Of a DNA stretch of 41,524 nucleotides, positions 128 through 35,886 are shown piece after piece (position 1 is the first letter of the stretch; every line of letters starts with the position of its first letter). The notes beneath the pieces were generated by a model. It did not search any database, was not told the DNA's origin, and saw only the letters and a program-made list of their open reading frames with translations. Location: assembly GCA_964496775.1 (NCBI GenBank), contig CAZCBC010000003.1, forward strand, positions 1-41,524, given 5' to 3'. A program made the position numbers and the translations under genes. The DNA is from an uncultured Oscillospiraceae bacterium. Its GTDB lineage: Bacteria > Bacillota > Clostridia > Christensenellales > Aristaeellaceae.

Positions 128-2155
128 TCACCACATTGGGTTGAGCCACTCAATCTCTGCCTTGAAGGGCTCCATCTTTTTTGTCAGCACGTCGAGAAGC
201 ACATCACTCGTTTCCTCAATCGCCCTCGCAAGTGGCGGATATGGTTTGTTCGTACAGTCAATTACACCATGCGCCATGTGCTCACCGTCAAAACGTCCCA
301 TCAGCGTCTGATCGTTGTACTCGAAGTAGTGCGCTCCAACACACAATGGATGTGAAGCTGCTTCTTGCAAGAACATCTTATATGCCTTACCACGTTCCTC
401 CTGGGTGGTGCAGCTCTGCAAAGCTGTGCGAAGCAGGCCAATCTCTTGTCCACCGAAATGCCACTCACCGATAATTACCGGCTTGTTCACACGTTTAGCA
501 AGTGTCAACATCGGAATAGCGCTGTGCTGATAACAATTAAAAGAAAGTACATCGAAAATTGCGCTACCGTCCACTAACTTCTCATGCAATCTTGCATGGC
601 GCAACCCAAGACACAAATGATGGTTATCCACATTTCGGCAAGCCTTAAGAGGGATTTCTCCAAAGGCCAAAATCAGAACCTGTTCGTACTCCTTAAGATC
701 CCTGAAAGCCGTTTCGCTAAGCTGTACTTCACGCGAAACCGGCTTGAGCAATATTTCAAAAGAATCAAACGATACTTTCCAAGCAACATTCAACGCCTCA
801 ATCGTTCCGTAACGTTCCTTAAGCCACTCCATCATATGGTAACGGCTCTTCAATGGTTCGTTCTTTACCAGCAGCTCGTAGGCAATGCAACAATCAATCT
901 GGAACATCCATTCCGGTTCATTATGAAGGAAGTAACCAAGTAAAAATTGATCGTCTGCCAAAGGAGCTAATTCATTTTCGGCAAACACAGCACAGTTTTC
1001 AGCATACTCACTGGAGAATACATCGGGGAAGTCGCGGAAAATAAAATGTTTTGTTTTGGGGAAACGTTTGAGCGTAACCACATACGGCAACTTGGACATA
1101 TTTAGAAAATCCTCAACCCGCTCATCAATAAAATTAACAATGCCTACACCCGTCGTATTAATTCCCCAATCCCTGAAGCGGCGAGTAGCAATTGTGCGCC
1201 AAGCTTCCCACCAGTTCTCACCAAACACACGCATCATATTAGCACGCGCCGGATTGAACATCAGATCATTACTCCGCTCAGTCTCGCCGTTGCGTTTCAC
1301 ATACTCGGCAATATGTTTAGGCTTAGTAAAAGCTCTTTTGTAAAGCGGATCTTCGGGACTGGGAGGATTAGTGTAGAAACTTTCCATCCCTGTAAACCAG
1401 CCAAATTCACCCATTCGTGTACCATAGCAGATTCCGTGTGAAAAGAACGCGTACCCGTCTGGATCCACCAACCACCAGCGTCCCCCATCATAATGCGTAC
1501 GAAACCAACCCGTTGCTTCAAACCGCTTGTCAAGGTAACCACCATAAGGAGAAAGACCACGATCGCGCACCGGAGTAGTCATTGCTGTTTGATAGTCAGT
1601 TTGCAAACGTGCGGTCATCTCTTCAATGGAGTGCGTTTTCGTTGGCCATTCATGGCCGATTAACTGTCCCATCTCGTCAATCATTGGCTTTCCCGGCGGC
1701 TCAAACCCAGGTTCCTCATCTGCGACATAAACGCGTCTGAGTTGCGCCCCCTTAAAATCCTTGCCTGGAAGGACCGTAATCACAACACGTTCTACGCTCT
1801 GTGGATCCGTCGGTAGTCCACGACAATGTGATTTGTACGCACCCGGAAAAACATGCAGAAAAAAACGGCGAGACCATAATTCGTCAATAAGCACTCGAAA
1901 AGATTGCCACATATTGGGTAACAGCTCATATTGCAACTCAAGAGGGGCATCACCATTCCTTGAATAAAACAGAGCCGCAACTTTCGCATCAGAATACTGC
2001 TCCACCAAGATATCAAAGCAAAACCACTTGTCCTCGTTCCATGGAGATTCAGGAGGTCTGTCAAACGATACAACAAGCGGATCGTCCCCATGTTTCACCT
2101 GCATACCAGGCTTTACAAACGAATAGCTCCCCTCAAACCAGGTATAAGAACTCAT
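128..2155 (-). CDS. Putative clan GH-A (beta/alpha)8 glycoside hydrolase with an N-terminal beta-sandwich-like region (GH42/GH50-like; family not assignable by eye)
   Basis: 675-aa ORF. 'GYFLHNEPEW' is an NEP acid/base-type motif and 'VIIGEWHFG' holds a candidate nucleophile Glu, in the order expected for clan GH-A. A GGAGG RBS overlaps the stop of the upstream ROK-like gene. No signal peptide. Last gene of the minus-strand array. Confidence 0.6.
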   Translation of the reverse strand: MSSYTWFEGSYSFVKPGMQVKHGDDPLVVSFDRPPESPWNEDKWFCFDILVEQYSDAKVAALFYSRNGDAPLELQYELLPNMWQSFRVLIDELWSRRFFLHVFPGAYKSHCRGLPTDPQSVERVVITVLPGKDFKGAQLRRVYVADEEPGFEPPGKPMIDEMGQLIGHEWPTKTHSIEEMTARLQTDYQTAMTTPVRDRGLSPYGGYLDKRFEATGWFRTHYDGGRWWLVDPDGYAFFSHGICYGTRMGEFGWFTGMESFYTNPPSPEDPLYKRAFTKPKHIAEYVKRNGETERSNDLMFNPARANMMRVFGENWWEAWRTIATRRFRDWGINTTGVGIVNFIDERVEDFLNMSKLPYVVTLKRFPKTKHFIFRDFPDVFSSEYAENCAVFAENELAPLADDQFLLGYFLHNEPEWMFQIDCCIAYELLVKNEPLKSRYHMMEWLKERYGTIEALNVAWKVSFDSFEILLKPVSREVQLSETAFRDLKEYEQVLILAFGEIPLKACRNVDNHHLCLGLRHARLHEKLVDGSAIFDVLSFNCYQHSAIPMLTLAKRVNKPVIIGEWHFGGQEIGLLRTALQSCTTQEERGKAYKMFLQEAASHPLCVGAHYFEYNDQTLMGRFDGEHMAHGVIDCTNKPYPPLARAIEETSDVLLDVLTKKMEPFKAEIEWLNPMW

Positions 2156-2159: not shown

Positions 2160-3020
2160 TCATCCTCCGTTTTCTACTTGTACACTTTGGTCAATTTTCA
2201 GCAATTGGTCTCCCCACTCTGCATAGGCATATGCTCCCCGTAAGGCTGCATCCTCTATATGTTCAGCTCTGCAGACCGTGATGGAACAGGTTGAACAAAA
2301 TCCTTCCATCATCAGATCCAGCGCCTTGGCAATCTGCCCACCAATCACAATCCGTTCAACTGCTTGTCCTTTCAGATGCTCTGTGAGCATTTGTCCAAGC
2401 ATTTTCCCAGTTTCTTTCATTAACTCTGCCGCTCGTGTGTCACCATTCCTTGCGTAAGCCGCAATTTCCTTAACGTTCAAATCTGCGCCACCCTGCTCTA
2501 TCCATCTACGATAAATCCCCCGCCCAGAGACATAGTTTTCCGCGATACTGGAGCCATATGGCGTACTCCAAAGAGGCATCAATGGAGTCAACTTCGAATG
2601 CACCAGGACTTTTCCATTCCGAAAGAGAACAAAACCCAAACCCGTTCCAAGCATCACGCCCGCCGCATAGGAGCAACCTTTCGCAGCACCATAAATTGCC
2701 TCTCCCAGCATAAAGGCTACGCCATCATGCACAAAGACGATATCGCGTTCTGAAAGTTCTCTGTTCAAAAGTTCGCGCAAATTTACACCGTAAAGAGCCG
2801 CAAACTTGTGCTTCATTAACACTGTGCCCGCCCTGTAATCCGCAGGTCCAGGCATGCTGATAGCAATTTTACCAACAGAATTCGTTTGCAAATATTTAAC
2901 GATTGGTCGGATTATTTGTTTGACTGTGCCGTTTTCAGCAATTGGAAACATGCCTGGTTGCGTAAACTCTCCCTTTTTTACCATGCTATGTTTAACAAAT
3001 GTACCGCCAATATCCAACAT
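2160..3020 (-). CDS. ROK-like (ASKHA superfamily) sugar kinase, copy A
   Basis: Carries 'MLDIGGTFVKH' (phosphate-1 DxGGT motif), 'VMLGTGLGF' and C-terminal 'IVIGGQIA'. Collinear with paralogue 28029-28898. The ORF-track start at 3053 is a TTG; ATG at 3020 matches the paralogue N-terminus, and TTG at 3032 is also possible. No CxCGxxGC zinc motif. Confidence 0.65.
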   Translation of the reverse strand: MLDIGGTFVKHSMVKKGEFTQPGMFPIAENGTVKQIIRPIVKYLQTNSVGKIAISMPGPADYRAGTVLMKHKFAALYGVNLRELLNRELSERDIVFVHDGVAFMLGEAIYGAAKGCSYAAGVMLGTGLGFVLFRNGKVLVHSKLTPLMPLWSTPYGSSIAENYVSGRGIYRRWIEQGGADLNVKEIAAYARNGDTRAAELMKETGKMLGQMLTEHLKGQAVERIVIGGQIAKALDLMMEGFCSTCSITVCRAEHIEDAALRGAYAYAEWGDQLLKIDQSVQVENGG

Positions 3021-3286
3021 TACACAATCCAAGTTACACCTCGTTATATTCAAAACCTAACATGGCGCTCAAGGCTAAGCATCACCCGACGCACACCAAC
3101 CGTACCTGATAAATACAGATTGCAACCAGGAAATATATATTGCACCAATTTAGTACAAGCCTTGTCATCCAAGTTGCCGCAATGTTTTCCGTTGCACATC
3201 ACTTCTGCGTACATTCACTTTTCAGATAGCTAAACGGAATATCGTCATCAAGGAGAAAGCCGACCAACTCTTAGGCGCAAATACGC

Positions 3287-5080
3287 TTAACTCTCCTTCT
3301 TTAGATGAGTCTTGTGAATCGTCACAATACCGACACCAAGGTTAGTTACCCTATACTTACCAAGATTTGCGGGTACTACAACCATGTCCAAGTTGTTCAT
3401 AATATAGTACTTGCTGGGATCAGCCAATGATTCAACTTTTACCTTTTCACCATCAACTAGAGCAAGTACATGGAAAAGACCGTCAGTATTGTCATCCATG
3501 GAGGTCTCAAAAATCAGATTGCGCAAAGAGAAATACAGCAGCTCATGCTCACCTACAACGATTTCTTTCCAGCCTTCTCCCTCACGCACCAGACCTCCGT
3601 GGTTAATTAGATTTTCATCACAATACTTTTTTGTACGTTCACTACGGATAACTTCACTGCCCATTTTCAGATGAATCGGGCGCGGCATGTTGGTCTGTGG
3701 ATCAAGGCGTTGATAATCGTAAAGTTTGTAGGTATAGGAACCAACCGTCAGGCTACCGATTTCAAGAATAACCTGGTTACGACCAGAAGCGTGGATGGTT
3801 CCGGCAGGAATCATTACCTGTGTGCCGGGCTTGGATTCTATATAGTTCACATACTTTTCATAGTCAATAAGTTCACCGTTATGCTCAACTCGGCGTGCCT
3901 CCTTGAAAAACTCCTCGCAACTGTTCTCTTCGCGGAATCCCAGATATGTTTTGGCCCCCTGACCAGATACGCAAACATAATAGCTCTCATCCTGACGCCC
4001 AAGTTCATCATGATTTTTTATCACATATTCAGCGTCCGGATGACACTGGATGGACATGTTGCCTGAAGCATGGTATGTATCATCATAATTAAAGCGAATC
4101 GGAAAATAACCGCCGAATTGCTCATAGGCCTGTCTGCCCAGCAACTTCTCACCCATCATCTGCACAAAAGTAAAGAACGGCGTTTCAAACTCATAGTCTT
4201 TCGTTTTAGCAACAATAGAAACTTCCATCGGGATTACGTCAAACACCCATGCGCAATTACGCATCTCACAAGGTAAATTGCGTAAACGATGGATATAATA
4301 ACCGCCCCAAACACCCTCCAAGTATACTGGCCGACAGCGGAAAGGACGTTCACAAAGTTCTTCAAAGAGAATTCTAAGATCCTTCATGGAAAGCATCTGC
4401 ATTTTTTCTGGAATGTCCGCACTGATATAGTAATCCATACGGCCTTGCTTAATCATATTCCAGCGAACTTCTATTGCGACTTCAAAATCAACGTAGTAGT
4501 TACGGCGCATGGTCAAGCCATATGTCTGATTTGTCACTGCGCCGATGTTACGTGCATGCCCGTTTTTGTAGGCTAGAACTGCCGTTCGCGGCGTGACATC
4601 TATCCAGATGCGTACATCATAAAATAGCTGTAATTCAGGTGCCAGCGCTCCCAGGCCATAGACTACACACGCACCATCCGCTTGGAGGAGAGAAGCGAGT
4701 TTCTCAACCTTGCCAGTATCCTGCAAGCCCTTGTAACCCTCTTTATAACGACGACCATAGAGCAGGACCGGATCACGCTCCCTATCCGTAGGTAAATACG
4801 GCGCGAGCATTACTTCGATTTCATCACCTGGCTTGAGCAGTGTGGCTGCATCAATAAAGGTTACATTCGTACCTGCGCAACGCTGGCGCAGCACATTGAC
4901 AAGGCTGGCTACATCCGTACCCGGATAAGCATCAATACCTATTTTTTTCTTTTCTTTTGCCATTTGCGCAATCTGCGCGGCCACGGCATGTATACCAGCT
5001 GTTGGTAGAACACCACGACCAGTCACATTGTTTACAGCATTCGGATCACTATAAGGATGCGGGTGAAACATAAAACTCAT
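3287..5080 (-). CDS. Extended (~600 aa) class-I phosphomannose-isomerase-type cupin protein, copy A
   Basis: The C-terminal ~350 aa carry type-I PMI-like motifs 'NMSIQCHPD', 'QDESYYV' and 'VMIPAGTIHASG'. The ~250-aa N-terminal region is unrecognised. Roughly two-thirds identical by eye to 29447-31249. GAGGAAAA RBS 7 nt upstream of the ATG. Confidence 0.7.
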   Translation of the reverse strand: MSFMFHPHPYSDPNAVNNVTGRGVLPTAGIHAVAAQIAQMAKEKKKIGIDAYPGTDVASLVNVLRQRCAGTNVTFIDAATLLKPGDEIEVMLAPYLPTDRERDPVLLYGRRYKEGYKGLQDTGKVEKLASLLQADGACVVYGLGALAPELQLFYDVRIWIDVTPRTAVLAYKNGHARNIGAVTNQTYGLTMRRNYYVDFEVAIEVRWNMIKQGRMDYYISADIPEKMQMLSMKDLRILFEELCERPFRCRPVYLEGVWGGYYIHRLRNLPCEMRNCAWVFDVIPMEVSIVAKTKDYEFETPFFTFVQMMGEKLLGRQAYEQFGGYFPIRFNYDDTYHASGNMSIQCHPDAEYVIKNHDELGRQDESYYVCVSGQGAKTYLGFREENSCEEFFKEARRVEHNGELIDYEKYVNYIESKPGTQVMIPAGTIHASGRNQVILEIGSLTVGSYTYKLYDYQRLDPQTNMPRPIHLKMGSEVIRSERTKKYCDENLINHGGLVREGEGWKEIVVGEHELLYFSLRNLIFETSMDDNTDGLFHVLALVDGEKVKVESLADPSKYYIMNNLDMVVVPANLGKYRVTNLGVGIVTIHKTHLKKES

Positions 5081-5104: not shown

Positions 5105-7171
5105 TTATTCTTCATAGAGTAGCATTACTTGATCCTGTTCAATGGTATCAGGACTACCCTGACCAGCCTTCTCCACAGTAGCCCAGCGATTCCATTGTGT
5201 ATCTTCAATAATATTGGATACTGATAACACCTTGCTGGTATCATTCCAGAGCACCAATGCATAAGTATCATCCTTAGCGCGATATAACGCACGTTTTAGG
5301 CCAGGTCCAATGTCTGCCAATTCCTGCTGTGCGTGGAATTGTCCCTCCAGCAAATATTTTCTATGCGCCTTTCGCAGATCAGAAATCTTTTTGACATAGT
5401 CCAGGTCTTCCGGCTGACGCTGTTCCTGAATAAACTTCTTATCTGTAAGGTACCGTAATTCCATCTCAAGTTTAAAGCCGTACAGGAACGCATAGTTGGC
5501 GAAGCGTCTGGAAACATAGGGATTGGGATTACGGATCGTAATCAGGGTTTCTGGAAAGGTGTGCCGAAACAATTCGGGCATGGCAGACGGCCCTGTTCCA
5601 GTGCTGCCAGCTATCAAATCATGGGTACCTGGACCTCTTTCCATAAATCCGTATTCTTTTCCACCGGGATAACTGCCAATGCCATGAATACAATCCAGAA
5701 ACTGAGAATGCACATCGGTAATATGTTCCGTCATATAAGCGAAATCTGCATATTGGTCCACTTGCTTGCGAATACGTTTATGCAGTTTTATCCTGCCCGG
5801 AGCATGAGATAGAGACGGGCGATCCTGCGGATGCTCATGGGTACTGTCAAAACAGGGGTAGGGAGGCATACCGCCGATTTGATCATACAAAACACCGTCT
5901 GCTCCAAAGCCATGGATCCAGTCCGCATTCTGCGCCATAAGTTCGTGCCAATCGCTGCAGCTGGGACAAACGGTTGCAAATGGATTTTTAGAGAAAAAAT
6001 GCAGGTAGTCGCTGTGGCAGAACTTATCATAGTACTCATAATACGGAGTTCCCCAGCGGGTCTTCCCTTCCCGCTTATGACCAGTTTCTTTATAGTATTT
6101 AGTACTAACATCAATCAAATGACCTTGGAAATATAAAGTTACACGCCCCCCCATTTCCTGCACATTACGGATATTCTCCCTAAGGGCATCTGCGCCACCA
6201 AGGGTAGGGCTGACTTCAAGATCCGGATAATGGTTATCATGACCACTATGGTACCAGCCAAACAGACCGAGGGTATCAAACCCGTGGGCTTGCGCGTATT
6301 CATACAGTTGTGGAAGAGTGTCATACGGCCATAGTTCATCTCCATACTGTTGCTTGTTAATCACCAAAAAATAACCGTTCATCGCTTGTACCCAATCCTT
6401 GGGTACCACAGGCTTACGCCAAGAAGAAGCCCAGGAAGCATACTCCTGCGCGCCCTTCATCCAATTGCCTGTATATAACCAGGCCATATAAGAAGGACAT
6501 TGCCATGTTTCGCCAGGTTTTACGAAAGACATTTTATTCATTTCCAGTGTTACTCCACCTTCTGGCGAACCCACTGCCCGCAGCGCGCTGGCGTGAAATT
6601 GATCATCTCTCCCTGTAAGATACAAGCAAGTATCCTTTCCCTCTAACATCATCCATTGCATAGACAACGGCCCGGGATAAGTCGCGGTTATTTCATGCAG
6701 TGCTTCCCGTCCAATTAGACTCATCAGGTAGGCATTGACCCCCAAAATACGTTCTCCCAGGTGCCTGGGATATAGTAAGTTCATGACGCCTTCATCCAAA
6801 CGCTCAACAGCGCCAAAGCAGGGATAAAACCATTCATTAAGGGTAGCATCGCTGTTATTAATGATAGTAGAATCGAAGTATAATTTTCCGTTTTCTACAT
6901 GGATGATCAGCTCAAGCGAAATGCTGACCAGCCCTTCCCGGGTTTGTAGGTCAGCATAACGCAGTATAATCTTGTCATCCTGAACGTCTATATCAAAATG
7001 CTGGTCATCTGAAAACGCCATTAGTTCCCAATTGTTACCAGCATGAATTACTGCGCGAAACAAGCCGGTCGGACGGCTGATGATATTTGGGCCACCAAGG
7101 AACGAAAACTCCGAAAATTGTCCAGACGCGTTTATCGCTATACGTATACCATCTTTTTCCAGAATATGCAT
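5105..7171 (-). CDS. Uncharacterised ~700-aa protein family 'X700', copy 1 (predicted intracellular TIM-barrel-like glycosidase)
   Basis: Shares collinear motifs with 11093-13150 and 32576-34774: 'GFDTLGLFGWY', 'GGRVTLYF', 'GADGVLYDQIGG', 'AYMTEH'. No signal peptide. The ORF-track start at 7189 is a TTG; ATG at 7171 has an AAGGGGGA RBS 7 nt upstream. Confidence 0.55.
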   Translation of the reverse strand: MHILEKDGIRIAINASGQFSEFSFLGGPNIISRPTGLFRAVIHAGNNWELMAFSDDQHFDIDVQDDKIILRYADLQTREGLVSISLELIIHVENGKLYFDSTIINNSDATLNEWFYPCFGAVERLDEGVMNLLYPRHLGERILGVNAYLMSLIGREALHEITATYPGPLSMQWMMLEGKDTCLYLTGRDDQFHASALRAVGSPEGGVTLEMNKMSFVKPGETWQCPSYMAWLYTGNWMKGAQEYASWASSWRKPVVPKDWVQAMNGYFLVINKQQYGDELWPYDTLPQLYEYAQAHGFDTLGLFGWYHSGHDNHYPDLEVSPTLGGADALRENIRNVQEMGGRVTLYFQGHLIDVSTKYYKETGHKREGKTRWGTPYYEYYDKFCHSDYLHFFSKNPFATVCPSCSDWHELMAQNADWIHGFGADGVLYDQIGGMPPYPCFDSTHEHPQDRPSLSHAPGRIKLHKRIRKQVDQYADFAYMTEHITDVHSQFLDCIHGIGSYPGGKEYGFMERGPGTHDLIAGSTGTGPSAMPELFRHTFPETLITIRNPNPYVSRRFANYAFLYGFKLEMELRYLTDKKFIQEQRQPEDLDYVKKISDLRKAHRKYLLEGQFHAQQELADIGPGLKRALYRAKDDTYALVLWNDTSKVLSVSNIIEDTQWNRWATVEKAGQGSPDTIEQDQVMLLYEE

Positions 7172-7290
7172 TCTAATTTCCCCCTTCAATCTATTAACAC
7201 CAATTTAAATTATCACCAAATTATGGCTGTATTTTTCTTGCTTTTTTGCTTTTTATACGAAAAGTAATTGGTTCGATTGAGTTTTAAAGT

Positions 7291-7316
7291 CCCGGAGGCT
7301 GTATACAACCTCCGGG
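7291..7316 (-). terminator. Intra-operon stem-loop after the SBP gene of set A (8-bp stem, weak U-tract)
   Basis: CCCGGAGG (7291-7298) pairs with CCTCCGGG (7309-7316) around a 10-nt loop, 13 nt downstream of the SBP stop. On the minus strand it is followed by ACTTTAAAAC. Confidence 0.45.
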
Positions 7317-7328: not shown

Positions 7329-8822
7329 TTATTTCTTCTGATTTTCCTCCGCATATACCCGGCTGGCTTCTTCTTCAAACTCAAGACCACCTTCACTTTC
7401 CCAGCGGGCAATAAACTCTTGGTACTCTGCTTCTACATCCCCAGTAGTAACGATCAATTGAGCAAAGCACTCCTTGACAATATCATCCAAGATAGCGCCA
7501 TACTCCGTCCGGGTTTCCAGTACTTGCGCAATCATTGGATAATCAAGCGCAACAGCCCATTCAGCGCTCAGGCCATCCTGGGTTGTCTTATTCATCAAGC
7601 GTGTTTCGGCATTTTCGCGTGTGTAACCGCCAAACCCATTGTAAACAAAGGCACCAGCAGCACGGTGAGTGGCATCATCAGTATAAATTCCAAGCCGCTT
7701 ATACTTGCCTGCTTCTTTATCCACCCACTCAAAGTGTTTTCCCTCAACGCCCATGTAAGTAAGTTCCTGACCTTCAGCATTATAATACATATAGTTGAGC
7801 AGTTTAACAGCCAATTCGGGATGGGCGCAACTCGCGTTGATTACGGCATCAGCGATTTGGTAGTTAGGATACAATTTAATGGGTCCATTCCCGTTAATAT
7901 GCGCGAAGCCAAACAGGTCACTCGGGTTTTCCGGAACCTCAAAAGTATAGCGGTTAGGGTACCAGTTGTTGGTAGTACCTACGCACTGAAAGTCCAGCAT
8001 ACCTACACTTCCGCGCCACAACTTTTCAAAACTCTGCATCAACGTCAGCGTTGCAAAATCCGGGTCCATCACGCCGTCCTGATATAACCGGCGCAGATAA
8101 TCCATAGCTTCAAGAAAACGAGGATGTTTCAGGAAGGTTGTGACTGTACCATCCTCAAGCAATATGGTGCCATTATTGAATCGAAGCGGAATATCAAAAG
8201 CTGACATCAGGTGTTGGAACGTCGCGTCGTCAGTCATCGTATTGACGATGCCATACGTGTCATTTGCGCCATTACCATCAGGATCCTTGAAGGTGAAAGC
8301 GTACAACACCTCATATAGGCTCTCTGTATCTGTGGGCATCTCCAGTCCCACATTCGCCAACCAATCTTTCCTTACAGCAAGGCTTTTAGGATACAGGCCC
8401 GCTTCTGACACAAGTCCATATACGCCGTCTTTGTTTACAAGCGGACTATAGAGATTTTCACCCGCCTCTGCCAGAATATCTGGTCCATATTCTGCGAGCA
8501 AAGGTTCCATGTTGTAAAGCATGTCCGCATCCCTAAGCTCCATCAAAACTTTGGTGTCTCGAACAGAGAAGATGTCTGGCAGTGAATTAGATGCAATGAG
8601 GGTGTTCAATTTAGCATTATAGTCGTCAGCCGTAACATAAATCACCTTCAGCTTAACCCCCAGACGGGCTTCCAATTCCGAGAGCACATCATTTTCTTCC
8701 GGAGGATTGTTATCTCCAGAAAGCAACATCGTAATTGTTGGAGTTTCCTGAGCAGCAAGCGAAACAGGGGTACCAGATAGAAAGAGCGCAACAGCAAGGA
8801 ACAAAGCGACAATAGTTTTCAT
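7329..8822 (-). CDS. ABC transporter extracellular solute-binding protein (family 1, LplA-like), set A
   Basis: 497 aa. N-terminal signal peptide 'MKTIVALFLAVALFLSGTPVSLAAQ' with no lipobox Cys. Lies immediately downstream of two CUT1-type permease genes. AAGGAGG RBS. Confidence 0.8.
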   Translation of the reverse strand: MKTIVALFLAVALFLSGTPVSLAAQETPTITMLLSGDNNPPEENDVLSELEARLGVKLKVIYVTADDYNAKLNTLIASNSLPDIFSVRDTKVLMELRDADMLYNMEPLLAEYGPDILAEAGENLYSPLVNKDGVYGLVSEAGLYPKSLAVRKDWLANVGLEMPTDTESLYEVLYAFTFKDPDGNGANDTYGIVNTMTDDATFQHLMSAFDIPLRFNNGTILLEDGTVTTFLKHPRFLEAMDYLRRLYQDGVMDPDFATLTLMQSFEKLWRGSVGMLDFQCVGTTNNWYPNRYTFEVPENPSDLFGFAHINGNGPIKLYPNYQIADAVINASCAHPELAVKLLNYMYYNAEGQELTYMGVEGKHFEWVDKEAGKYKRLGIYTDDATHRAAGAFVYNGFGGYTRENAETRLMNKTTQDGLSAEWAVALDYPMIAQVLETRTEYGAILDDIVKECFAQLIVTTGDVEAEYQEFIARWESEGGLEFEEEASRVYAEENQKK

Positions 8823-8845
8823 GGGAACCTCCTTGTGATGTATAT

Positions 8846-9763
8846 TTATCCTTTGACAGCGCCGATAGTAATCCCTTTGGTATAATAGCGCTGCAAGTAA
8901 GGATATGCGATAATAATTGGAACCACAGAAACAGCCACTACTGTCATTTTTAATGTCTCCTCAGTTAGGGTAGCCGCTTTGTCGAGCGAGGTAGTATCAC
9001 CGGATGCGGAAAGAGCATTGGCAGCCGCGCCACCAAGGACACTTCTAAGATATAATGGGAGCACCTGCAAATCATTGGTATTGGTGTAAAGAAGGCAGTT
9101 CATATAGTTATTCCAAAACCCAACGCCATAAAACATCGCAACTGCTGCCAGAGCAGGTGCACACAGCGGGACATAAATTTTAAACAAGATCATTACATCA
9201 TTGGCACCATCTATCCGGGCGCTCTCCTCTAAAGAGTCTGGTATAGATTGCATGTAATTGCGCAGGATAAACATATTATATGCGCTCATTGCAGTAGGAA
9301 GAATCATAGACCAGAATGTATTAATCAGCCCAAGCCGATAGACCTGTAAATATAATGGAATCATTCCCCCAGAAAACAACATTGTGAAAAAAATAACAAA
9401 ACTAATAATCCCCCTGCCCCGCAGGCGTTTTCTGGACAAGGGATATGCAGTTAGTGTCGAAAGCGTTATGCTAAGAATGGTACCTAACAAAGTTACTAAG
9501 ATAGAATTCTTGTAAGCTACCCATATTTGTGATGTTTTAAAAATCAGCTCATATCCTTTAAAATCCAACCCCCGTGGCCAGAAGAAAAAGCCGCCTGACA
9601 TGGCACGGTTAGAATCACTGATGGAGTACATAATAACGTGCCATACCGGGTATACTGTAGTAAACGCAAACAAGCCTAACGTCAGACAGATAAAGAAATA
9701 ACCGATACGTTCCCCTTTACTTTTACGTATTTTGAGGGGTTTCTTAAACCGTACAGCACTCAC
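8846..9763 (-). CDS. Carbohydrate ABC transporter permease (LplC/MalG-like), set A
   Basis: Multi-TM protein with EAA-loop motif 'ESARIDGANDVMILFKIYVPL'. The ORF-track ATG at 9817 overlaps the upstream gene by 38 nt. GTG at 9763 has an AAGGGGA RBS 8 nt upstream and is the likelier start. Confidence 0.8.
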   Translation of the reverse strand: MSAVRFKKPLKIRKSKGERIGYFFICLTLGLFAFTTVYPVWHVIMYSISDSNRAMSGGFFFWPRGLDFKGYELIFKTSQIWVAYKNSILVTLLGTILSITLSTLTAYPLSRKRLRGRGIISFVIFFTMLFSGGMIPLYLQVYRLGLINTFWSMILPTAMSAYNMFILRNYMQSIPDSLEESARIDGANDVMILFKIYVPLCAPALAAVAMFYGVGFWNNYMNCLLYTNTNDLQVLPLYLRSVLGGAAANALSASGDTTSLDKAATLTEETLKMTVVAVSVVPIIIAYPYLQRYYTKGITIGAVKG

Positions 9764-9779
9764 TTTTGTTTTTCCCCTT

Positions 9780-10733
9780 CTAAATGATGCCACTATCGGG
9801 ATCAATACGCTTAGCAATGCTGTTTGAGAGCAAAACCAAAGTCAACCCGATGGTGGATTTAAAAAGGCCCGCAGCAGTCGCCTCAGAAAAACGGGCCTGC
9901 TCTATACCTGTTTTATAAACATAGGTATCAATAATATCAATCTTTGATACAACTAAGGGATTGGATAACGCGAAAATTTGGTCAAAGCCTGCATCCATTA
10001 CTGTACCCACTCTAAAGATAAACAAAATGATAATTGTTGGCCGCAAAGAAGCCAGTGTAATATGCCACATCTGTTTCCATTTACCGGCTCCGTCAATCAT
10101 CGCAGCCTCGTATAATTGCTGGTCAATTCCAGTGATTGCAGCCAAATATACAATTGTTCCCATACCAGCAGCTTGCCAAACATAAGAAATAATGACCACT
10201 GCCCGAATACTGTTTTTATCTGTTAGAACATTAGTAACAACAGCCCCTGGTTGTAGTCTCCTGATGATGCCCGGTATCGCTCCGCTTGTTACATTGAACA
10301 TAGCAAAAAGCAAACCGCTGATGATGAACCAAGATATGAAATTGGGTAGTATAACCGCAGTCTGTATCAACTTTTTCGGTCTGCTTTTGCGAATTTCATT
10401 AATCATCAGAGATAAAATGATGGGAACCGGAAACCCGCAGATTAACTTTAGCAGAGAAATTATTACGTTATTTTCAAACGCACGCTGGAATGATACTCGG
10501 GAAAAGAGTTTTCGAAAGACTTCAAAACCAACCCAGTCGCCAGCCCCCTTCACCACACTATACTCTCGAAAAGCATATGTAATACCAAACATTGGAATAT
10601 AGTGAAACAGTATAAAATAAACAATACCAGGAATAAGAAGGGCGTAAAGCAACCCATCTCGGCAGACACCCCGAAAAAAGCGTATCCCTCGTTTATTGAC
10701 GGTCTTTATATTTGTATTCGAAAAAACTGCCAT
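9780..10733 (-). CDS. Carbohydrate ABC transporter permease (LplB/MalF-like), set A
   Basis: Multi-TM protein with EAA-loop 'EAAMIDGAGKWKQMWHITL'. The ORF-track start at 10769 is a TTG. ATG at 10733 (MAVFSNTN...) has a GAGG 9 nt upstream and gives an N-terminus comparable to paralogue 19308-20300. Confidence 0.8.
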   Translation of the reverse strand: MAVFSNTNIKTVNKRGIRFFRGVCRDGLLYALLIPGIVYFILFHYIPMFGITYAFREYSVVKGAGDWVGFEVFRKLFSRVSFQRAFENNVIISLLKLICGFPVPIILSLMINEIRKSRPKKLIQTAVILPNFISWFIISGLLFAMFNVTSGAIPGIIRRLQPGAVVTNVLTDKNSIRAVVIISYVWQAAGMGTIVYLAAITGIDQQLYEAAMIDGAGKWKQMWHITLASLRPTIIILFIFRVGTVMDAGFDQIFALSNPLVVSKIDIIDTYVYKTGIEQARFSEATAAGLFKSTIGLTLVLLSNSIAKRIDPDSGII

Positions 10734-10792
10734 ATTGAAAAACCTCATTATATGTACTTGTCGCTGCAAACCAATACACTACTATGCTAATT

Positions 10793-11092: not shown

Positions 11093-13150
11093 TCAGATTT
11101 CCGTAGCAGTAGCCATTTCAGCTACGATATTCACCAAGGTTTTCTTATCGGTTTGGGCGTTCGTAATCGTAACCGTATGGTTGCGTGCGGTAGGATTCCA
11201 CAGTGTGACTGCCATGGTACCGTCCTCAGCCCTCCACCCCTTCACGTAAACATAGGGATTGTCAGTCGTAAAGCCATCCGTGTCTACAAACAAGCCTCGC
11301 AGCAGATGCTTTTCATACTGATGATACAGGGCATTCAACTCCTTGAGGTACGCAGTATAGTTGGGCAAATCCTTCAGACTGCCGCAACAGCGATAGATCG
11401 TCATGTCAAACCGAAGTCCCAGCAGAAAGCTGTAGCCCGCCATGGCGCGGTAATGATCTTCATCCTCGCCGCATTCCCGGTTGGTACTCATTAGTTCCGG
11501 AAAAGTATAACGGTACATTTCTATAAGGCGGCTGTCCATGCGTGCGGCATCAAGATTTTCAGCAGCAACAGGATCAAGCAGACGCGCGTCCGGCTGTGAG
11601 TTGGAACCGTGGCTGATATCCATGCTTTGTCCGTAAATATCCACATTGTGTTCCATCAGGATTATTTTGTCATCGCCAAAACTTTTCACATAGTCCCGCA
11701 GGCCGCTGTAGTTGGCGGCTTTACTTTCATGGGAATGGCTTGGTTTTTTATGCGTGTGACCCTCAGCATAACAAAAATAGGGGAACCAGCCACCTATATC
11801 GTACAGCACACCGTCAGCACCCAAATCCAGACATTGTTTTGCCGACCACTTCATCTTTTCCTGCCACAACGGTGCGCCAGGGCATGCCAGATACATAGGC
11901 ATGGCCGGATTGCCGATTTTGCGATAAGTTCCTTCGCCGCAATAGGTTTCTGAGAAAGGAATATCCTCCCCCCAGAGCGAACGGATGGGAACGCTTTGGC
12001 CGCCCTCCTTCAAATAAAAATCGCTATAATGATCTACCAAAGCGTAGCTCAAGAACATCAGTACCCGTCCACCCTTTTGGTGAACATAGTCAATGCCTTC
12101 TTTCAGTTTTTCTACGCCGCCCATCCGTTCATCCACATAGTAATCGGGCCACATTCGGGCAAAGCCGCCTTTTTCCCAGCCCAACAGGTAGAGCGTATTA
12201 AAACCGGCAGCAGCAGCCTCGTCATACAAGGCGGGAATATCACTGTAATCCCAATTGAGTTCACCATGCTGTTGCTTCAAAATTACGCGCAGCCATCCAG
12301 TCATGTCACGGCACCAGTCCGGACGCTCAGGCGGAACAAACCCGCCGCTTATTTCCATAAAGGAGCGATAGAAACGAGAGCCCGCATGCCAGTCGCCCAG
12401 ATGGGGAAAACAATCAATCGCCTGTCCCTGCCAGCGCTCACCAGCCTTAAGCATGGGATAGCGAATCATACCGAAACGCAGTACGTTCAGACGTGTATCT
12501 CTCTCAACATGCAGACACAGTGCCTGACGCGTGGTATCCTCGGAGCCGATATACAGACCTTCCTCGCTGTTGTACCAGTCGAACCACTGCATTGATGCCT
12601 GCTCCCCCTGGTACATTGCATCCAAGTCGGTATGGAACTGGTCATGGCGTTCGTACTTTCGAAATCCGGCGTAGGTGGACAGATCGTTGTAAGCGGGATT
12701 TGGGATACGAATCCCTAAACCTCTGGGCCAGGCAATAAAATCATCCTTATGACAGCCAGACAGGGAACGGACACCGGAGACTGGCGTTACCTGAAGCTCC
12801 TGCAAAACAACGGACGAATCGCGATTTTCTAATTCCGCTATAACTCTCAGGCCACGCGGGTCACTCAAAAACCGCAATATCAGGGACGCATCAATCAGGC
12901 GTCCATCCTCACCAATCAATGAATCACAGCGTAACGTAAGTGCATCCTCGTCAGCAGAAATCTGCTGCTTTTGATCATCCTGCCAAACCACGCATTCTAC
13001 TCGCTCGGTACCGGGAATGGAATAGATTAGCTTCCAAACCGTCCCCGGTATCTCTACATACTCGTGATTTGTCGCCAAGTGAAGGAACGAACTGTTGTGT
13101 CCCTGATTGTCCAGCGCATAGGAAATAACCTCGTTTTTAATCGTATACAT
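11093..13150 (-). CDS. Uncharacterised ~700-aa protein family 'X700', copy 2
   Basis: Carries motifs 'GFNTLYLLGWE', 'GGRVLMFL', 'GADGVLYDIGG' and 'IILMEHN', collinear with copies 1 and 3. The ORF-track start at 13165 is a GTG overlapping the upstream stop. ATG at 13150 (MYTIKNE...) has GTGAGG 9 nt upstream. Confidence 0.55.
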   Translation of the reverse strand: MYTIKNEVISYALDNQGHNSSFLHLATNHEYVEIPGTVWKLIYSIPGTERVECVVWQDDQKQQISADEDALTLRCDSLIGEDGRLIDASLILRFLSDPRGLRVIAELENRDSSVVLQELQVTPVSGVRSLSGCHKDDFIAWPRGLGIRIPNPAYNDLSTYAGFRKYERHDQFHTDLDAMYQGEQASMQWFDWYNSEEGLYIGSEDTTRQALCLHVERDTRLNVLRFGMIRYPMLKAGERWQGQAIDCFPHLGDWHAGSRFYRSFMEISGGFVPPERPDWCRDMTGWLRVILKQQHGELNWDYSDIPALYDEAAAAGFNTLYLLGWEKGGFARMWPDYYVDERMGGVEKLKEGIDYVHQKGGRVLMFLSYALVDHYSDFYLKEGGQSVPIRSLWGEDIPFSETYCGEGTYRKIGNPAMPMYLACPGAPLWQEKMKWSAKQCLDLGADGVLYDIGGWFPYFCYAEGHTHKKPSHSHESKAANYSGLRDYVKSFGDDKIILMEHNVDIYGQSMDISHGSNSQPDARLLDPVAAENLDAARMDSRLIEMYRYTFPELMSTNRECGEDEDHYRAMAGYSFLLGLRFDMTIYRCCGSLKDLPNYTAYLKELNALYHQYEKHLLRGLFVDTDGFTTDNPYVYVKGWRAEDGTMAVTLWNPTARNHTVTITNAQTDKKTLVNIVAEMATATEI

Positions 13151-13161
13151 GATGTGGCGCC

Positions 13162-14589: not shown

Positions 14590-14615
14590 GCTACCTGCCT
14601 CCTTTTTGTAGCTTA

Positions 14616-17780: not shown

Positions 17781-17843
17781 ATCAAAACACATCTCCCCCG
17801 CAAACTGTCAATTGTCTCTATCAATCCTATCATATTCAAAATG

Positions 17844-17873
17844 AGTATAGCATTTGTCCATTTACACGAACAA
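17844..17873 (-). promoter_or_regulatory. Candidate sigmaA-type promoter of the minus-strand array (TTGTTC-18 nt-TATACT)
   Basis: Minus-strand -35 TTGTTC (17868-17873), 18-nt spacer, -10 TATACT (17844-17849), about 60 nt upstream of the DUF5107-like start. Confidence 0.45.
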
Positions 17874-17923
17874 TGGGAAAGTTGTCGGACTTTTTCCGAA
17901 GATGTTGATTCCCTTTCCGTACA

Positions 17924-17952
17924 TTGATTACCGTTTCAAAATATGGTATGGT
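17924..17952 (+). promoter_or_regulatory. Candidate promoter of the regulator gene (TTGATT-17 nt-TATGGT)
   Basis: -35 TTGATT (17924-17929), 17-nt spacer, -10 TATGGT (17947-17952), about 30 nt upstream of ATG 17986, which has a GAAGAGG RBS. Confidence 0.4.
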
Positions 17953-17985
17953 AATTTATATTGCATGTATGAAGAGGTTGTCGAT

Positions 17986-19119: not shown

Positions 19120-19130
19120 AAAGTATTTTG

Positions 19131-19143
19131 TGGAATAATTCCA
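19131..19143. promoter_or_regulatory. Perfect 13-bp palindrome TGGAAT-A-ATTCCA (candidate operator)
   Basis: Read directly; lies 12 nt after the regulator stop codon. Confidence 0.3.
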
Positions 19144-19229: not shown

Positions 19230-19244
19230 AGTATTCCTTGGGTG

Positions 19245-26601: not shown

Positions 26602-26605
26602 CCAT

Positions 26606-32575: not shown

Positions 32576-34774
32576 TTAAACCGTTAGAACGATTACAGCC
32601 GCTTCGTCCAGCGGAAGCGTGACTGTAACCTCGGTTCCCACTTCCGTTGCTGCAACTGTACAGGTTATCTCCATCGGTTTGGGTTGGCGCATTGTCATCT
32701 GCCTGCAAGCGGGTGATTTGTCATATTCCCAAAGAACTGTAACGGTTCCGTGCAGTCCTTTTTCAGCAGCACAGGCAAGCAACATACCATTTGCAAGCGT
32801 ATATCGCCGGACCTGCTGTTCCTGCGGAGCACGAAGCAAACCAACCGTGTCTGTAAAATATCCTTGCCCATAATGCTCAAGCCACGCGACACGCAAAGTA
32901 ACGAGCTGCTTCAGCCGCTCGTATTGTTCCGGGTCGCGTCGCCAAGTATTATCCCATTCCAAATCATAGCACCATAAATATGCGCCCATGGTAAATGCAT
33001 TGTGCAAAAGTTCCGTGGAATGTCGGGCGATATGTTCCGGTCGCATTGCAGAGTTACGCCGGGGGTTCATCATATCTGCTAAAATCTGATTCGGGAAAGT
33101 ATATTTGTACACCTGCGGCATCCGCCCCTTAAAGGGACAGTGCAGTTCAGATACAAGTTGGCCGCTGGCATAGGGACCAAAGGCATCATTGCAACCCTCA
33201 AAGATTAGTGCCATGCCCTCCGGAGCATGGTCTTGTTGTATTTTGGCAAGCAGCTTGACATAACCCTGGTTCCATGCGCAGGGCTGATTGGTATGCTCCG
33301 CATGTTCTGGATGATAGCACTTGCAGGAGGTGGCCATGGCTAACTGGTCGAGATACATTCCATCGGCCCCGATCTCGTGAGTCATGTAGTAAACGGTCTG
33401 TGCCAGGTGCTCACGCCAAGCCGTATCATTGATGCACAGGGACGCGAAGGAAAACTCATCTGCGCCATATTTCTCAATGAGAAGAGAACCGTCCCGGTTC
33501 ATGACGGCGCTATGGCGAATCCGTTCCTGCTGGTCGGCAAAGCCAGTGTTGCAGAGCCGAGAATTGATATAGAAACACACATGCCCGCCCATTCTACGGC
33601 ATTCCGCCAAGGCATCCTTCAGCTCCTGTACGGTTCCCAGGCGGTGATTTGGTGTGTAGTGCGGAAAGCCATAGTCAAAGCCATTCTCGTGCCATCCAGC
33701 TAAAAGCAGATGATTAAAGCCCAATTTCTGCGCCTCTTTGAGTAATTCGGGAATATCCCGGAAGGTGTGCACAATCCCTCCACCCTGATACTGAAAATCG
33801 TAATGTGCCATTAGTCCGGGGCTTTTTTCAAACCAAGCAGGGCAATGATAGCCAGAATCGCGAAGTGAAAGTGTTTCAAACCAGTTGCGATAATCGTCTG
33901 CAGCCCAATGCCAATCCCCCTCGTGAAAAGCCAGTACACATTCCTCACTGTTCCAGACACCATTTTTTAGACCGGGTCTATGCAAGATAGCCAGACCAGT
34001 ACCGGGATAACTTTTCCCAAAAGACTCCATACGCAGTGCCTTCATGGTCAGGCTGCTGTTGCGGCAGGTGATGTAAATGCCTGTTCCTTCGGTTGGGTCA
34101 TAAAGGTCCATCCAGACCATAGAGGCCTGACCCGAATAATTGATTCGATGAACATAGGCGCCACGTTCATCCTGCTTGCCGGTTGCTTGTCCGATGTTGT
34201 ATTCGTAAATATATTCCTGCCATTTCCAGTGAATTAACTGCGGCTCAGAAGCTAACTGTTCGGTGGGGTTGTCGATACGGCAACCCGCAAAATGCGGATA
34301 AACCAACACATCATCTTGCCATGTCTCGCCCAGCCAGATTCCATCTATTGCCGGAAAAGCAATATCGTCCAACTCGAAACCGGTCTGGTTGTCCAATGCA
34401 AGTTTCCAATATGTGCGGCAATCTTCCGGCAACAAACAGATCGTCACGCGGGCGCTTAGGTTAATGCGAGCTTCCTCTGCCACAAGGAACGGAAAGTGCA
34501 TTTGGAGGGTTGCTTCTCGATCCCCCTGATTTACCATGATTTCCGGCTTGAGAGACGGGTTTTTTAGAATGTCGGCGTGCCTTGGCGGGTGAAAGCGAAT
34601 GTCTCCCGCATCGGTCAATAACAGCCCATCCAGCAGGGACCATGTGCGGCGTACATGGTTTTTAAGAATATTGTCGGCTGTACTTTCGCGTACAAACTCC
34701 AGCAGTTCACCACTGGACGCATCCACAGCCAGGGATACGATGCCGTTGGTCGCGTGTAAGCGGGACTGATACAT
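32576..34774 (-). CDS. Uncharacterised ~700-aa protein family 'X700', copy 3
   Basis: 732 aa. Carries 'GFNHLLLAGWH', 'GGHVCFYI', 'GADGMYLDQL' and 'ALIFEGC', collinear with copies 1 and 2. AAGGAGG RBS. No signal peptide. Confidence 0.55.
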   Translation of the reverse strand: MYQSRLHATNGIVSLAVDASSGELLEFVRESTADNILKNHVRRTWSLLDGLLLTDAGDIRFHPPRHADILKNPSLKPEIMVNQGDREATLQMHFPFLVAEEARINLSARVTICLLPEDCRTYWKLALDNQTGFELDDIAFPAIDGIWLGETWQDDVLVYPHFAGCRIDNPTEQLASEPQLIHWKWQEYIYEYNIGQATGKQDERGAYVHRINYSGQASMVWMDLYDPTEGTGIYITCRNSSLTMKALRMESFGKSYPGTGLAILHRPGLKNGVWNSEECVLAFHEGDWHWAADDYRNWFETLSLRDSGYHCPAWFEKSPGLMAHYDFQYQGGGIVHTFRDIPELLKEAQKLGFNHLLLAGWHENGFDYGFPHYTPNHRLGTVQELKDALAECRRMGGHVCFYINSRLCNTGFADQQERIRHSAVMNRDGSLLIEKYGADEFSFASLCINDTAWREHLAQTVYYMTHEIGADGMYLDQLAMATSCKCYHPEHAEHTNQPCAWNQGYVKLLAKIQQDHAPEGMALIFEGCNDAFGPYASGQLVSELHCPFKGRMPQVYKYTFPNQILADMMNPRRNSAMRPEHIARHSTELLHNAFTMGAYLWCYDLEWDNTWRRDPEQYERLKQLVTLRVAWLEHYGQGYFTDTVGLLRAPQEQQVRRYTLANGMLLACAAEKGLHGTVTVLWEYDKSPACRQMTMRQPKPMEITCTVAATEVGTEVTVTLPLDEAAVIVLTV

Positions 34775-34833: not shown

Positions 34834-35886
34834 TTATATGGTTTTTTTCATAATGGCAAATCGGCGCACGATACGGAAACCGGTACGCAGATAAATGCTC
34901 TGTGCGCGGTTATTTTCGCCGGTAAACAGAGTAGAGAAGGTAGCGCCCTCAGCAATAAACTCCTGCATAAGCAGGTGGAACAGAATGGGCGCAATGCCAC
35001 GGTGCTCAAACTGCGGGTCGGTAAAGATACCGCAGAACCAGCCGCGTCCGCTATCCTGCTTATCAACAGGCCCAGTAAAGGCGACAATATGTCGAGCATG
35101 GGTGGCAACCAGAAGCGGCCTTGGCCCGGAGGGAACCTTAGTACCGTTGGGAATAAAACGAACATCCGTATTTGGACGGTTCTCCTTCCAGCAAGCCAGC
35201 TCGGAGCGAATCACCTCGCGCCAATATTCGTTGCCCACACGATCGCACAACCTGTCGTAATCATAGTCGAGAGAGGCATCGTAGCGCCCGGTATATACGC
35301 CCTCGGAAAGCAGTTGTGCCTGACACTTTTTCATGTCATCCCAGGGAATGTAGTTTTTCAAATCAAGATACATAGCAATCTCACGGTCGTGTTCCTTAAA
35401 ACCGGATGATTTAAGAAATTCATATCCCGGCGAGGCCATATCCACACCTGGGGTGTTGTTGTGGTCATGTCCATGAGTACTGGGGATGTGCCAGTCAAGA
35501 TTGACTGGGTTATCGTTGGAAAGGGCAACAGACCTTTTCCCCGCAGCTTTGAATCGGCTGCACAGTTCGTCAACGAGGGCTCGGCCAATTCCCCGACCAC
35601 GGCAATCCTTGCGCACAAAGAAGCAGGTAATATAGCCCGGAGTGTTTTCGTTTGTCTCGTTATCCAGAAAAACTTTCTTGGCAATACCATTTATGAAGCC
35701 GACAATTTTACCATCTTTCTCGGCTACCAGTGAATACCTCGGGTCGTAGTTGGGATCTTTTTCAAACTTGGTGTAGAAATAAGCTTCAGTAAGGCTGTAG
35801 TAAATCACCTCACCAGCCTGTACACTTTCGTTCCAGATGCGGATTACAGATGGTAAATCCTGCTTCTTATAGGTGCGGATATTCAT
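34834..35886 (-). CDS. Tandem-GNAT N-acetyltransferase
   Basis: 350 aa. The first GNAT motif A is 'RGRGIGRALVDEL'. A second, degenerate acetyl-CoA motif 'EHRGIAPILFHLLMQEF' lies in the C-terminal half. GAGGAGG RBS. Confidence 0.7.
   Translation of the reverse strand: MNIRTYKKQDLPSVIRIWNESVQAGEVIYYSLTEAYFYTKFEKDPNYDPRYSLVAEKDGKIVGFINGIAKKVFLDNETNENTPGYITCFFVRKDCRGRGIGRALVDELCSRFKAAGKRSVALSNDNPVNLDWHIPSTHGHDHNNTPGVDMASPGYEFLKSSGFKEHDREIAMYLDLKNYIPWDDMKKCQAQLLSEGVYTGRYDASLDYDYDRLCDRVGNEYWREVIRSELACWKENRPNTDVRFIPNGTKVPSGPRPLLVATHARHIVAFTGPVDKQDSGRGWFCGIFTDPQFEHRGIAPILFHLLMQEFIAEGATFSTLFTGENNRAQSIYLRTGFRIVRRFAIMKKTI

Follow-up and report, generated by a model that had tools for sequence, protein, structure and literature searches.

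The closest described relatives of the proteins discussed here are retaining α-glycosidases. NagBb, the α-N-acetylgalactosaminidase of Bifidobacterium bifidum, belongs to glycoside hydrolase (GH) family 129 and has been solved several times (PDB 5wzn, 5wzp, 5wzq and 5wzr). The same holds for the α-1,3-(3,6-anhydro)-D-galactosidase of Zobellia galactanivorans (ZGAL_3152, also ZgGH129 or DagB; 5opq and 8rzk). The latter is composed of a distorted β-sandwich, a triosephosphate isomerase (TIM) barrel and an immunoglobulin-like domain, with sizes similar to those of the models presented below (PMC5698469). Asp435 is one of the two catalytic residues of NagBb, and of the two it alone is kept in the Zobellia enzyme, as Asp486 (PMC5698469). 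The catalytic domain of GH101 has been described as GH13-like, and that of NagBb is similar to GH101 (PMC8106489); the roles of Asp435, Trp398 and Ca2+ in NagBb are taken here from both papers. The present analysis deals with three genes in a stretch of 41,524 nucleotides from an uncultured Oscillospiraceae bacterium (assembly GCA_964496775.1, contig CAZCBC010000003.1, positions 1 to 41,524), hereafter the window. All three encode proteins of Pfam family PF19773 (DUF6259). This catalogued family is distantly homologous to GH129 and, judged by fold, to GH101 and GH36, which makes a new glycoside hydrolase family a credible prospect, but not a new kind of enzyme. The three genes are the following:

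5105..7171, minus strand: DUF6259 copy 1, 688 residues from the ATG at 7171 (694 from the TTG at 7189), 85.0 bits to PF19773
11093..13150, minus strand: DUF6259 copy 2, 685 residues from the ATG at 13150, 57.1 bits to PF19773
32576..34774, minus strand: DUF6259 copy 3, 732 residues, 118.4 bits to PF19773, the most divergent copy and the best GH129 match

The longest open reading frames, all on the minus strand, extend over 5105-7189 (TTG start), 11093-13165 (GTG) and 32576-34774 (ATG). Inside the first two, the ATG codons at 7171 and 13150 are in frame and preceded by Shine-Dalgarno-like sequences (GAAGGGGG-N8-ATG and AAGTGAGG-N8-ATG, respectively), while AAGGAGG lies ahead of the start codon of copy 3 at 34774. 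Because the 688 residues of copy 1 equal the length of its closest homologues, the two internal ATG codons are the likelier true starts. The residue numbering of copy 1 is counted from the TTG at 7189.

In pairwise BLASTP, the homology between the copies is full-length and far above chance: 28% identity between copies 1 and 2 (expectation value, E, 8e-59), 22% between copies 1 and 3 (E 5e-23) and 23% between copies 2 and 3 (E 2e-21). The initial annotation, made from the sequence alone, had proposed three paralogues of ~700 residues with a collinear motif series, and this description is correct. All four motifs are present in each copy, in the same order: GFDTLGLFGW, GFNTLYLLGW and GFNHLLLAGW (copies 1, 2 and 3, as in what follows), then GGRVTLYF, GGRVLMF and GGHVCFY, then GADGVLYD, GADGVLYD and GADGMYLD, and finally MTEH, LMEH and IFEG. 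The Glu of the fourth motif is located 52, 49 and 50 residues after the last Asp of the third. The absence of signal peptides and the sugar-gene setting, noted at the same time, are also borne out: no N-terminal hydrophobic signal sequence is visible on direct reading of the three translations, and a Pfam scan of the window places sugar ATP-binding cassette (ABC) transporters, glycosidases and sugar kinases around all three copies.

The idea of a threefold amplification within 30 kb, on the other hand, has to be abandoned. Given the identities of 22-28%, the close relatives found elsewhere for copies 1 and 3 (up to 86% and up to 98% identity; 49% at best for copy 2) and their differing gene partners, the subfamilies are old and no recent amplification took place. 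The nearest relatives of the window copies belong to metagenome-assembled genomes (MAGs) of Clostridia and Eubacteriales. The three copies are thus ancient paralogues of distinct subfamilies that happen to share one sugar-utilisation region. Tandem arrays of two to three copy-1-type genes (~40-45% identity to copy 1 of the window) are found in 13 related loci of other Bacillota MAGs, L028, L029 and L033 included; within-locus multiplication of DUF6259 genes is therefore common.

All three scores to PF19773 exceed the curated gathering threshold of 28.7 bits, so that the DUF-type Pfam match suspected beforehand does exist. The other Pfam matches of the copies, to DUF5696 and GHL6, are all sub-threshold, and no NCBIfam model matched the three proteins. 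For none of the copies did the Pfam scan give a match at E <= 0.1 to PF11308 (GH129), to Glyco_hydro_101 (PF12905) or to the Melibiase and the N- and C-terminal GH36 domain models. The gene at 35907-38015, two genes upstream of copy 3, matches all three GH36 models strongly. The family had been called unassignable, which does not hold. No established GH model of Pfam or NCBIfam recognises it, but it is a catalogued Pfam DUF whose remote homology to GH129/GH101 can be detected, and thus a new branch of a known superfamily.

Homologue searches with copies 1 and 3 returned well over 100 relatives each. The close homologues all carry PF19773, and the named ones are called "DUF6259 domain-containing protein" or "hypothetical protein". 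Searched with a profile, 1.84 billion cluster representatives yielded 4,257 clusters at E <= 1e-3, 682 of them at E <= 1e-30, which corresponds to a family of ~4,000 clusters at 50% identity. The copy-1 type is carried by Clostridia, Christensenella and Oscillospiraceae MAGs from rumen, gut and digesters and, furthermore, by Sphaerochaeta, Cohnella, Paenibacillus, Victivallales, Planctomycetaceae, Verrucomicrobia and Dyadobacter. Metagenomic GH129 fragments cross-match PF12905, PF18952, PF11308 and, once, PF19773. These cross-matches support a single superfamily that includes DUF6259.

AlphaFold2 models of copies 1 and 3, built with family alignments, are confident (predicted local distance difference test, pLDDT, 92.3 and 94.0; predicted template modelling score, pTM, 0.92 and 0.93). 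Both have the same layout: an N-terminal β-sandwich, a (β/α)8 barrel and a C-terminal β-sandwich. In copy 1, the all-β domain covers residues ~8-240, the barrel ~270-610 and the C-terminal β-sandwich ~617-692. Foldseek searches of the PDB with the two models gave full-length matches with a probability of 1.0 and E-values of 1e-18 to 1e-26, at 9-14% identity. The 50 best listed matches of each model are all retaining α-glycosidases (GH129, FpGalNase, GH36 and GH101). The models thus argue for the (β/α)8 retaining-glycosidase character that had been read from the motif spacing. For copy 1, the top E-value belongs to ZgGH129 (5opq, E 5e-26, template modelling (TM) scores of 0.64/0.67). For copy 3, it belongs to FpGalNase, the GH36 blood-group A galactosaminidase of Flavonifractor plautii (8x1b, E 8e-26, TM 0.60/0.65; also 9awt). 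The best TM-scores are those of NagBb (0.63-0.73; 0.66/0.73 for 5wzn).

The resemblance to GH36 is predicted to concern the overall architecture and the retaining α-mechanism, with TM-scores of only ~0.5 to the classical α-galactosidases of this family (6phw, 3mi6, 4fnr and 2xn0). The catalytic residues of GH36 are two Asp; DUF6259 keeps an Asp/Glu pair instead. Such a pair is implied for GH101 by D764N and E796Q, mutants named in PDB titles, which point to an Asp nucleophile and a Glu acid/base. GH101 structures (EngBF 2zxq, SpGH101 5a55) are matched with a Foldseek probability of 1.0 and E ~1e-20. In contrast to DUF6259, they are far larger, the solved constructs being multi-domain and 1,100-1,350 residues long, with a target-normalised TM-score of 0.24-0.30, and the likeness is at the fold level only, as no PF12905 match is found.

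NagBb is the only solved protein that was found by sequence methods. Copy 3 alone matches it in phmmer (5wzq, E 0.0035), and so does profile A2, whose alignment contains mainly copy-1-type sequences plus copies 2 and 3 (E 0.007). The profile of the copy-3 subfamily reaches E 3e-5 (5wzq) and 1.9e-4 (5wzn). These matches span ~150 residues only; at the sequence level, the similarity is one of remote, partial homology rather than of family-level relationship. Profile A2 gave no match to ZgGH129 (5opq) at E <= 10. A homologue search with a 144-residue fragment of NagBb returned only short metagenomic fragments. With a chimera of the fragments P0128 and P0142, hhalign aligned only the GW motif to the family profile (probability 30%), and the A2 hidden Markov model did likewise.

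Within the matched region, the final Asp of GADGxxxD is aligned with Asp435 of NagBb by copy 3, by profile A2, by the subfamily profile and by two further local profiles. Three independent profiles place GADGxxxD...C....H on LDCAYLD...C....H of NagBb. Conservation was assessed in a combined alignment of 81 sequences, made up of the copy-1 and copy-3 subfamilies plus copy 2. The Asp (D436 in copy 1), the Glu (E488) and a further Asp (D492) are invariant in all 81, in agreement with the invariant Asp and Glu initially pointed out. Two other groups of residues are kept in 80 of the 81. One is C408, C446 and H451, a Cys...Cys-x4-His pattern shared with NagBb (C407, C445 and H450), for which a structural metal site and a disulphide are both conceivable. 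The other is D318 in the motif GW-x-x-G-x-D, the sole exception being copy 2 of the window, with Ala336. The positions in the window are as follows, the assignments in copies 2 and 3 being taken from the 81-sequence alignment:

5882..5884, minus strand: copy 1 Asp436, closing residue of both GADGVLYD and strand 432-436, predicted catalytic nucleophile
5726..5728, minus strand: copy 1 Glu488, predicted general acid/base, in MTEH, at the end of strand 484-488
5714-5716, minus strand: copy 1 Asp492, invariant in the 81-sequence alignment
5966-5968, 5852-5854 and 5837-5839, minus strand: copy 1 C408, C446 and H451, with equivalents in copies 2 and 3
11798..11800, minus strand: copy 2 Asp456, predicted nucleophile
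11651-11653, minus strand: copy 2 Glu505
12158-12160, minus strand: copy 2 Ala336, in place of the Asp of GW-x-x-G-x-D
33347..33349, minus strand: copy 3 Asp476, predicted nucleophile, also from the alignment to NagBb
33197-33199, minus strand: copy 3 Glu526

In the model of copy 1, D436 and E488 end successive predicted strands (432-436 and 484-488). This arrangement fits the GH13-like barrel that has been described for GH101 and, by similarity, for NagBb, so that the comparison with GH13-type enzymes made at the outset was apt (PMC8106489). MTEHITD of copy 1 and SSSEEVSDW of NagBb both read E-x-x-x-D, a likeness by motif only; Glu478 of NagBb was read as the first Glu of this segment in the 92%-identical fragment P0142. 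The DUF6259 Glu would then be the equivalent of Glu478, which is reportedly a catalytic residue. A second residue of interest is Asp330 of NagBb (in GYDN), said to bind O4 of N-acetylgalactosamine (GalNAc). It aligns with D318 of copy 1 and D367 of copy 3, and the Ala336 of copy 2 suggests an altered -1 subsite or specificity. DUF6259 and NagBb thus have in common the three-domain order, the motif GW-x-x-G-x-D-N-x-x-P-D-Y after the second strand, the position of the Asp nucleophile with Cys...Cys-x4-His around it and, by motif comparison only, Glu-x-x-x-Asp after the next strand.

The genes around the copies give indications of the substrates. On the minus strand, the order is: DUF5107/TPR gene, GH39-like gene, copy 2, two permeases, solute-binding protein, copy 1, a 597-residue phosphomannose isomerase (PMI)-like protein, a ROK kinase and a 675-residue GH50-like protein. 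The partners of copies 1 and 3 are:

128..2155, minus strand: GH50-like glycosidase of 675 residues, no visible signal peptide, assigned from PDB sequence matches
2160-3053, minus strand: ROK sugar kinase (Pfam ROK), partner of copy 1
3287-5080, minus strand: PMI-like protein of 597 residues (PDB 1qwr), partner of copy 1
7329..10769, minus strand: ABC sugar importer between copies 2 and 1, a solute-binding protein and two permeases (Pfam SBP_bac_1, BPD_transp_1)
34834..35886, minus strand: double-GNAT acetyltransferase of 350 residues, immediately upstream of copy 3 (Pfam)

The block of ABC importer, DUF6259, PMI-like, ROK and GH50-like genes recurs, as a rule with an RpiR regulator gene alongside, in a metagenomic contig with an 86%-identical copy, in Sphaerochaeta pleomorpha and in two further assemblies. 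The importer is kept beside the copy-1 relatives. In the window, the adjacent solute-binding proteins are encoded at 7329-8822 and 21344-22990. By tblastn, the transporter is found in 35 of 79 related loci, the GH50-like protein in 27, the PMI-like protein in 24 and the ROK kinase in 16. The catalytic region of the 675-residue protein matches GH50 β-agarases (5z6p, E 3e-44; 4bq2, E 9e-41), and its GH50 matches are all agarases; in Pfam, only a sub-threshold GH42 match is obtained. Its gene adjoins a DUF6259 gene, or is near one, in loci L001, L080, L081 and L082. To our knowledge, β-agarase is the only activity assigned to GH50. In the non-marine anaerobes where the GH50-like protein lies near copy-1-type DUF6259, an agarase seems unlikely, and a new GH50-like specificity may be present. 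The C-terminal half of the 597-residue protein resembles class I mannose-6-phosphate isomerase (1qwr, E 1e-13; weakly also NCBIfam manA).

Copy 3 has other partners. Its pairing with the double-GNAT gene is also found in L088, next to the 98% relative, and in L083 (72% relative, with a 76%-identical GNAT protein). A convergent gene for a NamZ-type exo-muramidase lies beside copy 3 both in the window and in the contig of the 98%-identical relative. More distant copy-3 relatives have as neighbours either an APH-family kinase or, together, a SIS-domain protein, a kinase of BadF type and an RpiR regulator. On our reading of the Pfam hits, the SIS-domain protein resembles MurQ-type etherases. Taken together, the GNAT, NamZ and SIS/BadF partners point to an amino-sugar substrate. 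Copy 2 is preceded by the genes for the GH39-like glycosidase and the DUF5107/TPR protein; the context of its nearest relative (P0320, 49% identical) is dominated by transposase genes.

From these data, the DUF6259 copies are probably cytoplasmic retaining α-glycosidases, probably exo-acting, that cleave imported oligosaccharides by double displacement. The cytoplasmic location follows from the lack of a visible signal peptide and from the adjacent ABC importers; we infer the hydrolase activity, the α-retaining stereochemistry, the role of the Glu, the exo action and the substrates. In the proposed mechanism, the importers would bring in oligosaccharides to be cleaved inside the cell. The Asp that ends the GADGxxxD strand (D436, D456 and D476 in copies 1, 2 and 3) would attack the anomeric carbon, and the invariant Glu closing the strand that follows (E488, E505 and E526) would serve as general acid/base. 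A further Asp, located behind the GW motif in copies 1 and 3 (D318 and D367) but not in copy 2, would help to hold the sugar in the -1 subsite. Since copy 1 forms a conserved cassette with the GH50-like, ROK and PMI-like genes, a mixed-linkage oligosaccharide might be broken down stepwise to a hexose, which would then be phosphorylated and isomerised. Copy 3 may release an α-linked hexosamine or N-acetylhexosamine, as it is linked to amino-sugar genes. Copy 2 would have a changed -1 site, and each subfamily its own specificity.

A number of observations weigh against this proposal. No solved structure shares more than 14% identity with the copies (range 9-14%). The assignment of Asp and Glu draws on sequence and predicted strands. 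No alignment program bridged the segment that holds the DUF6259 Glu and Glu478: the HMMER alignments end short of it, and the register produced by MAFFT --add differed and was implausible. The residues presumed to bind Ca2+ in NagBb are those that differ between the wild type (5wzn) and a quadruple Ala mutant (5wzq), namely His and Asp of YLHLDGW and His of THDQ. They are not kept in DUF6259, where these segments align with GLFGW, YLLGW and LLAGW and with YFQG, FLSY and YINS in copies 1, 2 and 3, respectively; hence, the mode of N-acetyl recognition of NagBb does not carry over. With ROK and PMI-like partners, the product would seem to be of gluco- or manno-type, whereas the structural neighbours all act on galacto-configured sugars. 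Finally, no paper mentioning DUF6259, PF19773 or DUF5696 and no assayed DUF6259 member was found in the searched literature; the same searches gave nothing relevant on GHL6, SpiGrapes_1590 or PF18952, and no recent new family related to GH129/GH101 that fits DUF6259.

The MAFFT register, which places YLD of NagBb under the non-conserved FLD of copy 1, was rejected, because copy 3 has no Asp at this position; it is also contradicted by the HMMER profiles, which consistently give the GADGxxxD register.

The copies could also belong, as strongly diverged members, to a CAZy family that already exists, GH129 being the likeliest, and have an activity known from it, such as α-N-acetylgalactosaminidase or α-1,3-(3,6-anhydro)-D-galactosidase. 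NagBb has the best TM-scores, ZgGH129 the top Foldseek E-value, and a profile detects NagBb at E 3e-5; moreover, 8rzk is labelled ZgGH129 despite 16% identity to NagBb (PMC5698469), and the GH129 name is therefore already used broadly. Such membership is nevertheless unlikely. With an identity of 11-14% to NagBb, the copies match neither PF11308 nor PF12905 at E <= 0.1, the presumed Ca2+ ligands are replaced by non-liganding residues, and the genomic context is not one of mucin or GalNAc utilisation. ZgGH129 has a similar length and domain layout (PMC5698469), but it is only 12-14% identical and escapes sequence detection, with profile A2 missing 5opq at E <= 10. DagB teams with a β-galactosidase on an oligosaccharide of alternating α and β linkages, which parallels the pairing of DUF6259 with the GH50-like protein. 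It is, however, predicted to be periplasmic and belongs to a polysaccharide utilisation locus of a marine Bacteroidota (PMC5698469), whereas the DUF6259 copies are predicted to be cytoplasmic and their window is devoid of anhydro-galactose catabolic genes. The neighbouring genes encode neither a 3,6-anhydro-galactose dehydrogenase nor a cycloisomerase, and they include neither the Leloir nor the GalNAc pathway. Judging by their names, most sources of the family are MAGs from rumen and gut, anaerobic digesters, and Cohnella and Paenibacillus in culture rather than marine algal degraders.

The same retaining machinery could, as within GH13, belong to glycoside phosphorylases or transglycosylases. 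The GH13-like architecture of the catalytic domain (PMC8106489), a weak profile match to a GH13 pullulanase at the third-strand motif and the cytoplasmic location would suit such enzymes. They are rendered quite improbable by the copy-1 cassette, in which no phosphomutase or sugar-1-phosphate-handling gene is conserved and the ATP-dependent ROK kinase fits a free sugar product, and by the structural neighbours, which are all hydrolases. A β-glycosidase akin to the GH42/GHL6-type TIM-barrel enzymes of clan GH-A, as the sub-threshold GHL6 match of copy 3 would have it (22.7 bits for a cut-off of 35), is very improbable indeed. No clan GH-A enzyme is present among the 50 best listed Foldseek matches of either model. 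Clan GH-A enzymes use two Glu, on strands 4 and 7; here, the candidates are one Asp and one Glu, separated by ~50 residues and closing two predicted strands that follow each other.

Beyond the proposed α-glycosidase activity, a wider interpretation is put forward tentatively, its chances being somewhat short of even. DUF6259 would be a true new GH family with undescribed α-specificities, the copy-1 type acting obligately together with a non-marine GH50-like enzyme on one oligosaccharide. The route through the ROK kinase and the unusual PMI-like protein of ~600 residues would constitute a complete catabolic pathway, so far undescribed and widespread in Clostridia of gut, rumen and digesters, in Sphaerochaeta, in Paenibacillaceae and in Victivallales. 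What is new is a large uncharacterised family with a conserved pathway context; the fold, the chemistry and the α-glycosidase superfamily are already known. If the activity is confirmed, several thousand hypothetical proteins would receive a function and a catalytic mechanism, and a new CAZy family would probably be founded within the GH101/GH129/GH36-like α-glycosidases. DUF6259 proteins are common in bacteria of herbivore gut, human gut and anaerobic digesters, and the GH50-like partner, together with the odd kinase/isomerase pair, points to an unrecognised oligosaccharide substrate and pathway. The advance would be useful but incremental, as GH families of known fold and mechanism are regularly described; the family is worth biochemical study.

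Just downstream of the solute-binding-protein gene, a GC-rich hairpin is located at 7288-7313 on the minus strand (CCCGGAGG...CCTCCGGG, followed by ACTTT), and an AT-rich spacer separates it from copy 1. Copy 1 and its downstream genes may therefore be transcribed apart from the transporter genes. The G+C content is ~44-46% over the first 12 kb, which include the copy-1 cassette, and ~48-53% over most of the rest of the window. This shift may reflect a separate origin of the cassette.

Much of the region 13162-31249 is a diverged duplication, on both strands, around a LacI-like sensor gene (17854-19119). The identity between its pairs amounts to 27% for the DUF5107/TPR proteins, 43% for the GH39-like proteins, 39% for ROK, 68% for the PMI-like proteins, 34-40% for the permeases and 27% for the solute-binding proteins. 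The DUF6259 and GH50-like genes are present only in the minus-strand set. The two PMI-like paralogues (597 residues at 3287-5080, minus strand, and 600 residues at 29447-31249, plus strand) each lie near a ROK gene. Their C-terminal half contains the motifs QCHPD and IHASG, taken as cupin-type, while their N-terminal ~240 residues gave no match in Pfam, NCBIfam or the PDB. The DUF5107 proteins have C-terminal TPR (1058 residues at 14616-17792, minus strand, and 657 residues at 23069-25042, plus strand). Each gene is upstream of a GH39-like gene, a pairing that may be a functional unit.

A 476-residue protein (25171-26601, plus strand) has no meaningful Pfam, NCBIfam or PDB sequence match and might be a sugar isomerase; by tblastn, 7 of the 79 related loci contain relatives of it. 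In Sphaerochaeta and two other assemblies, an unannotated gene for 474-484 residues, truncated by the locus ends, borders the copy-1 cassette and is a candidate homologue of the 476-residue protein. Finally, 39750-40691 (plus strand) encodes a secreted protein of 313 residues, composed of two tandem repeats of ~140 residues (PNPVFEATAAEA... and PNPIVEASAEEA...).

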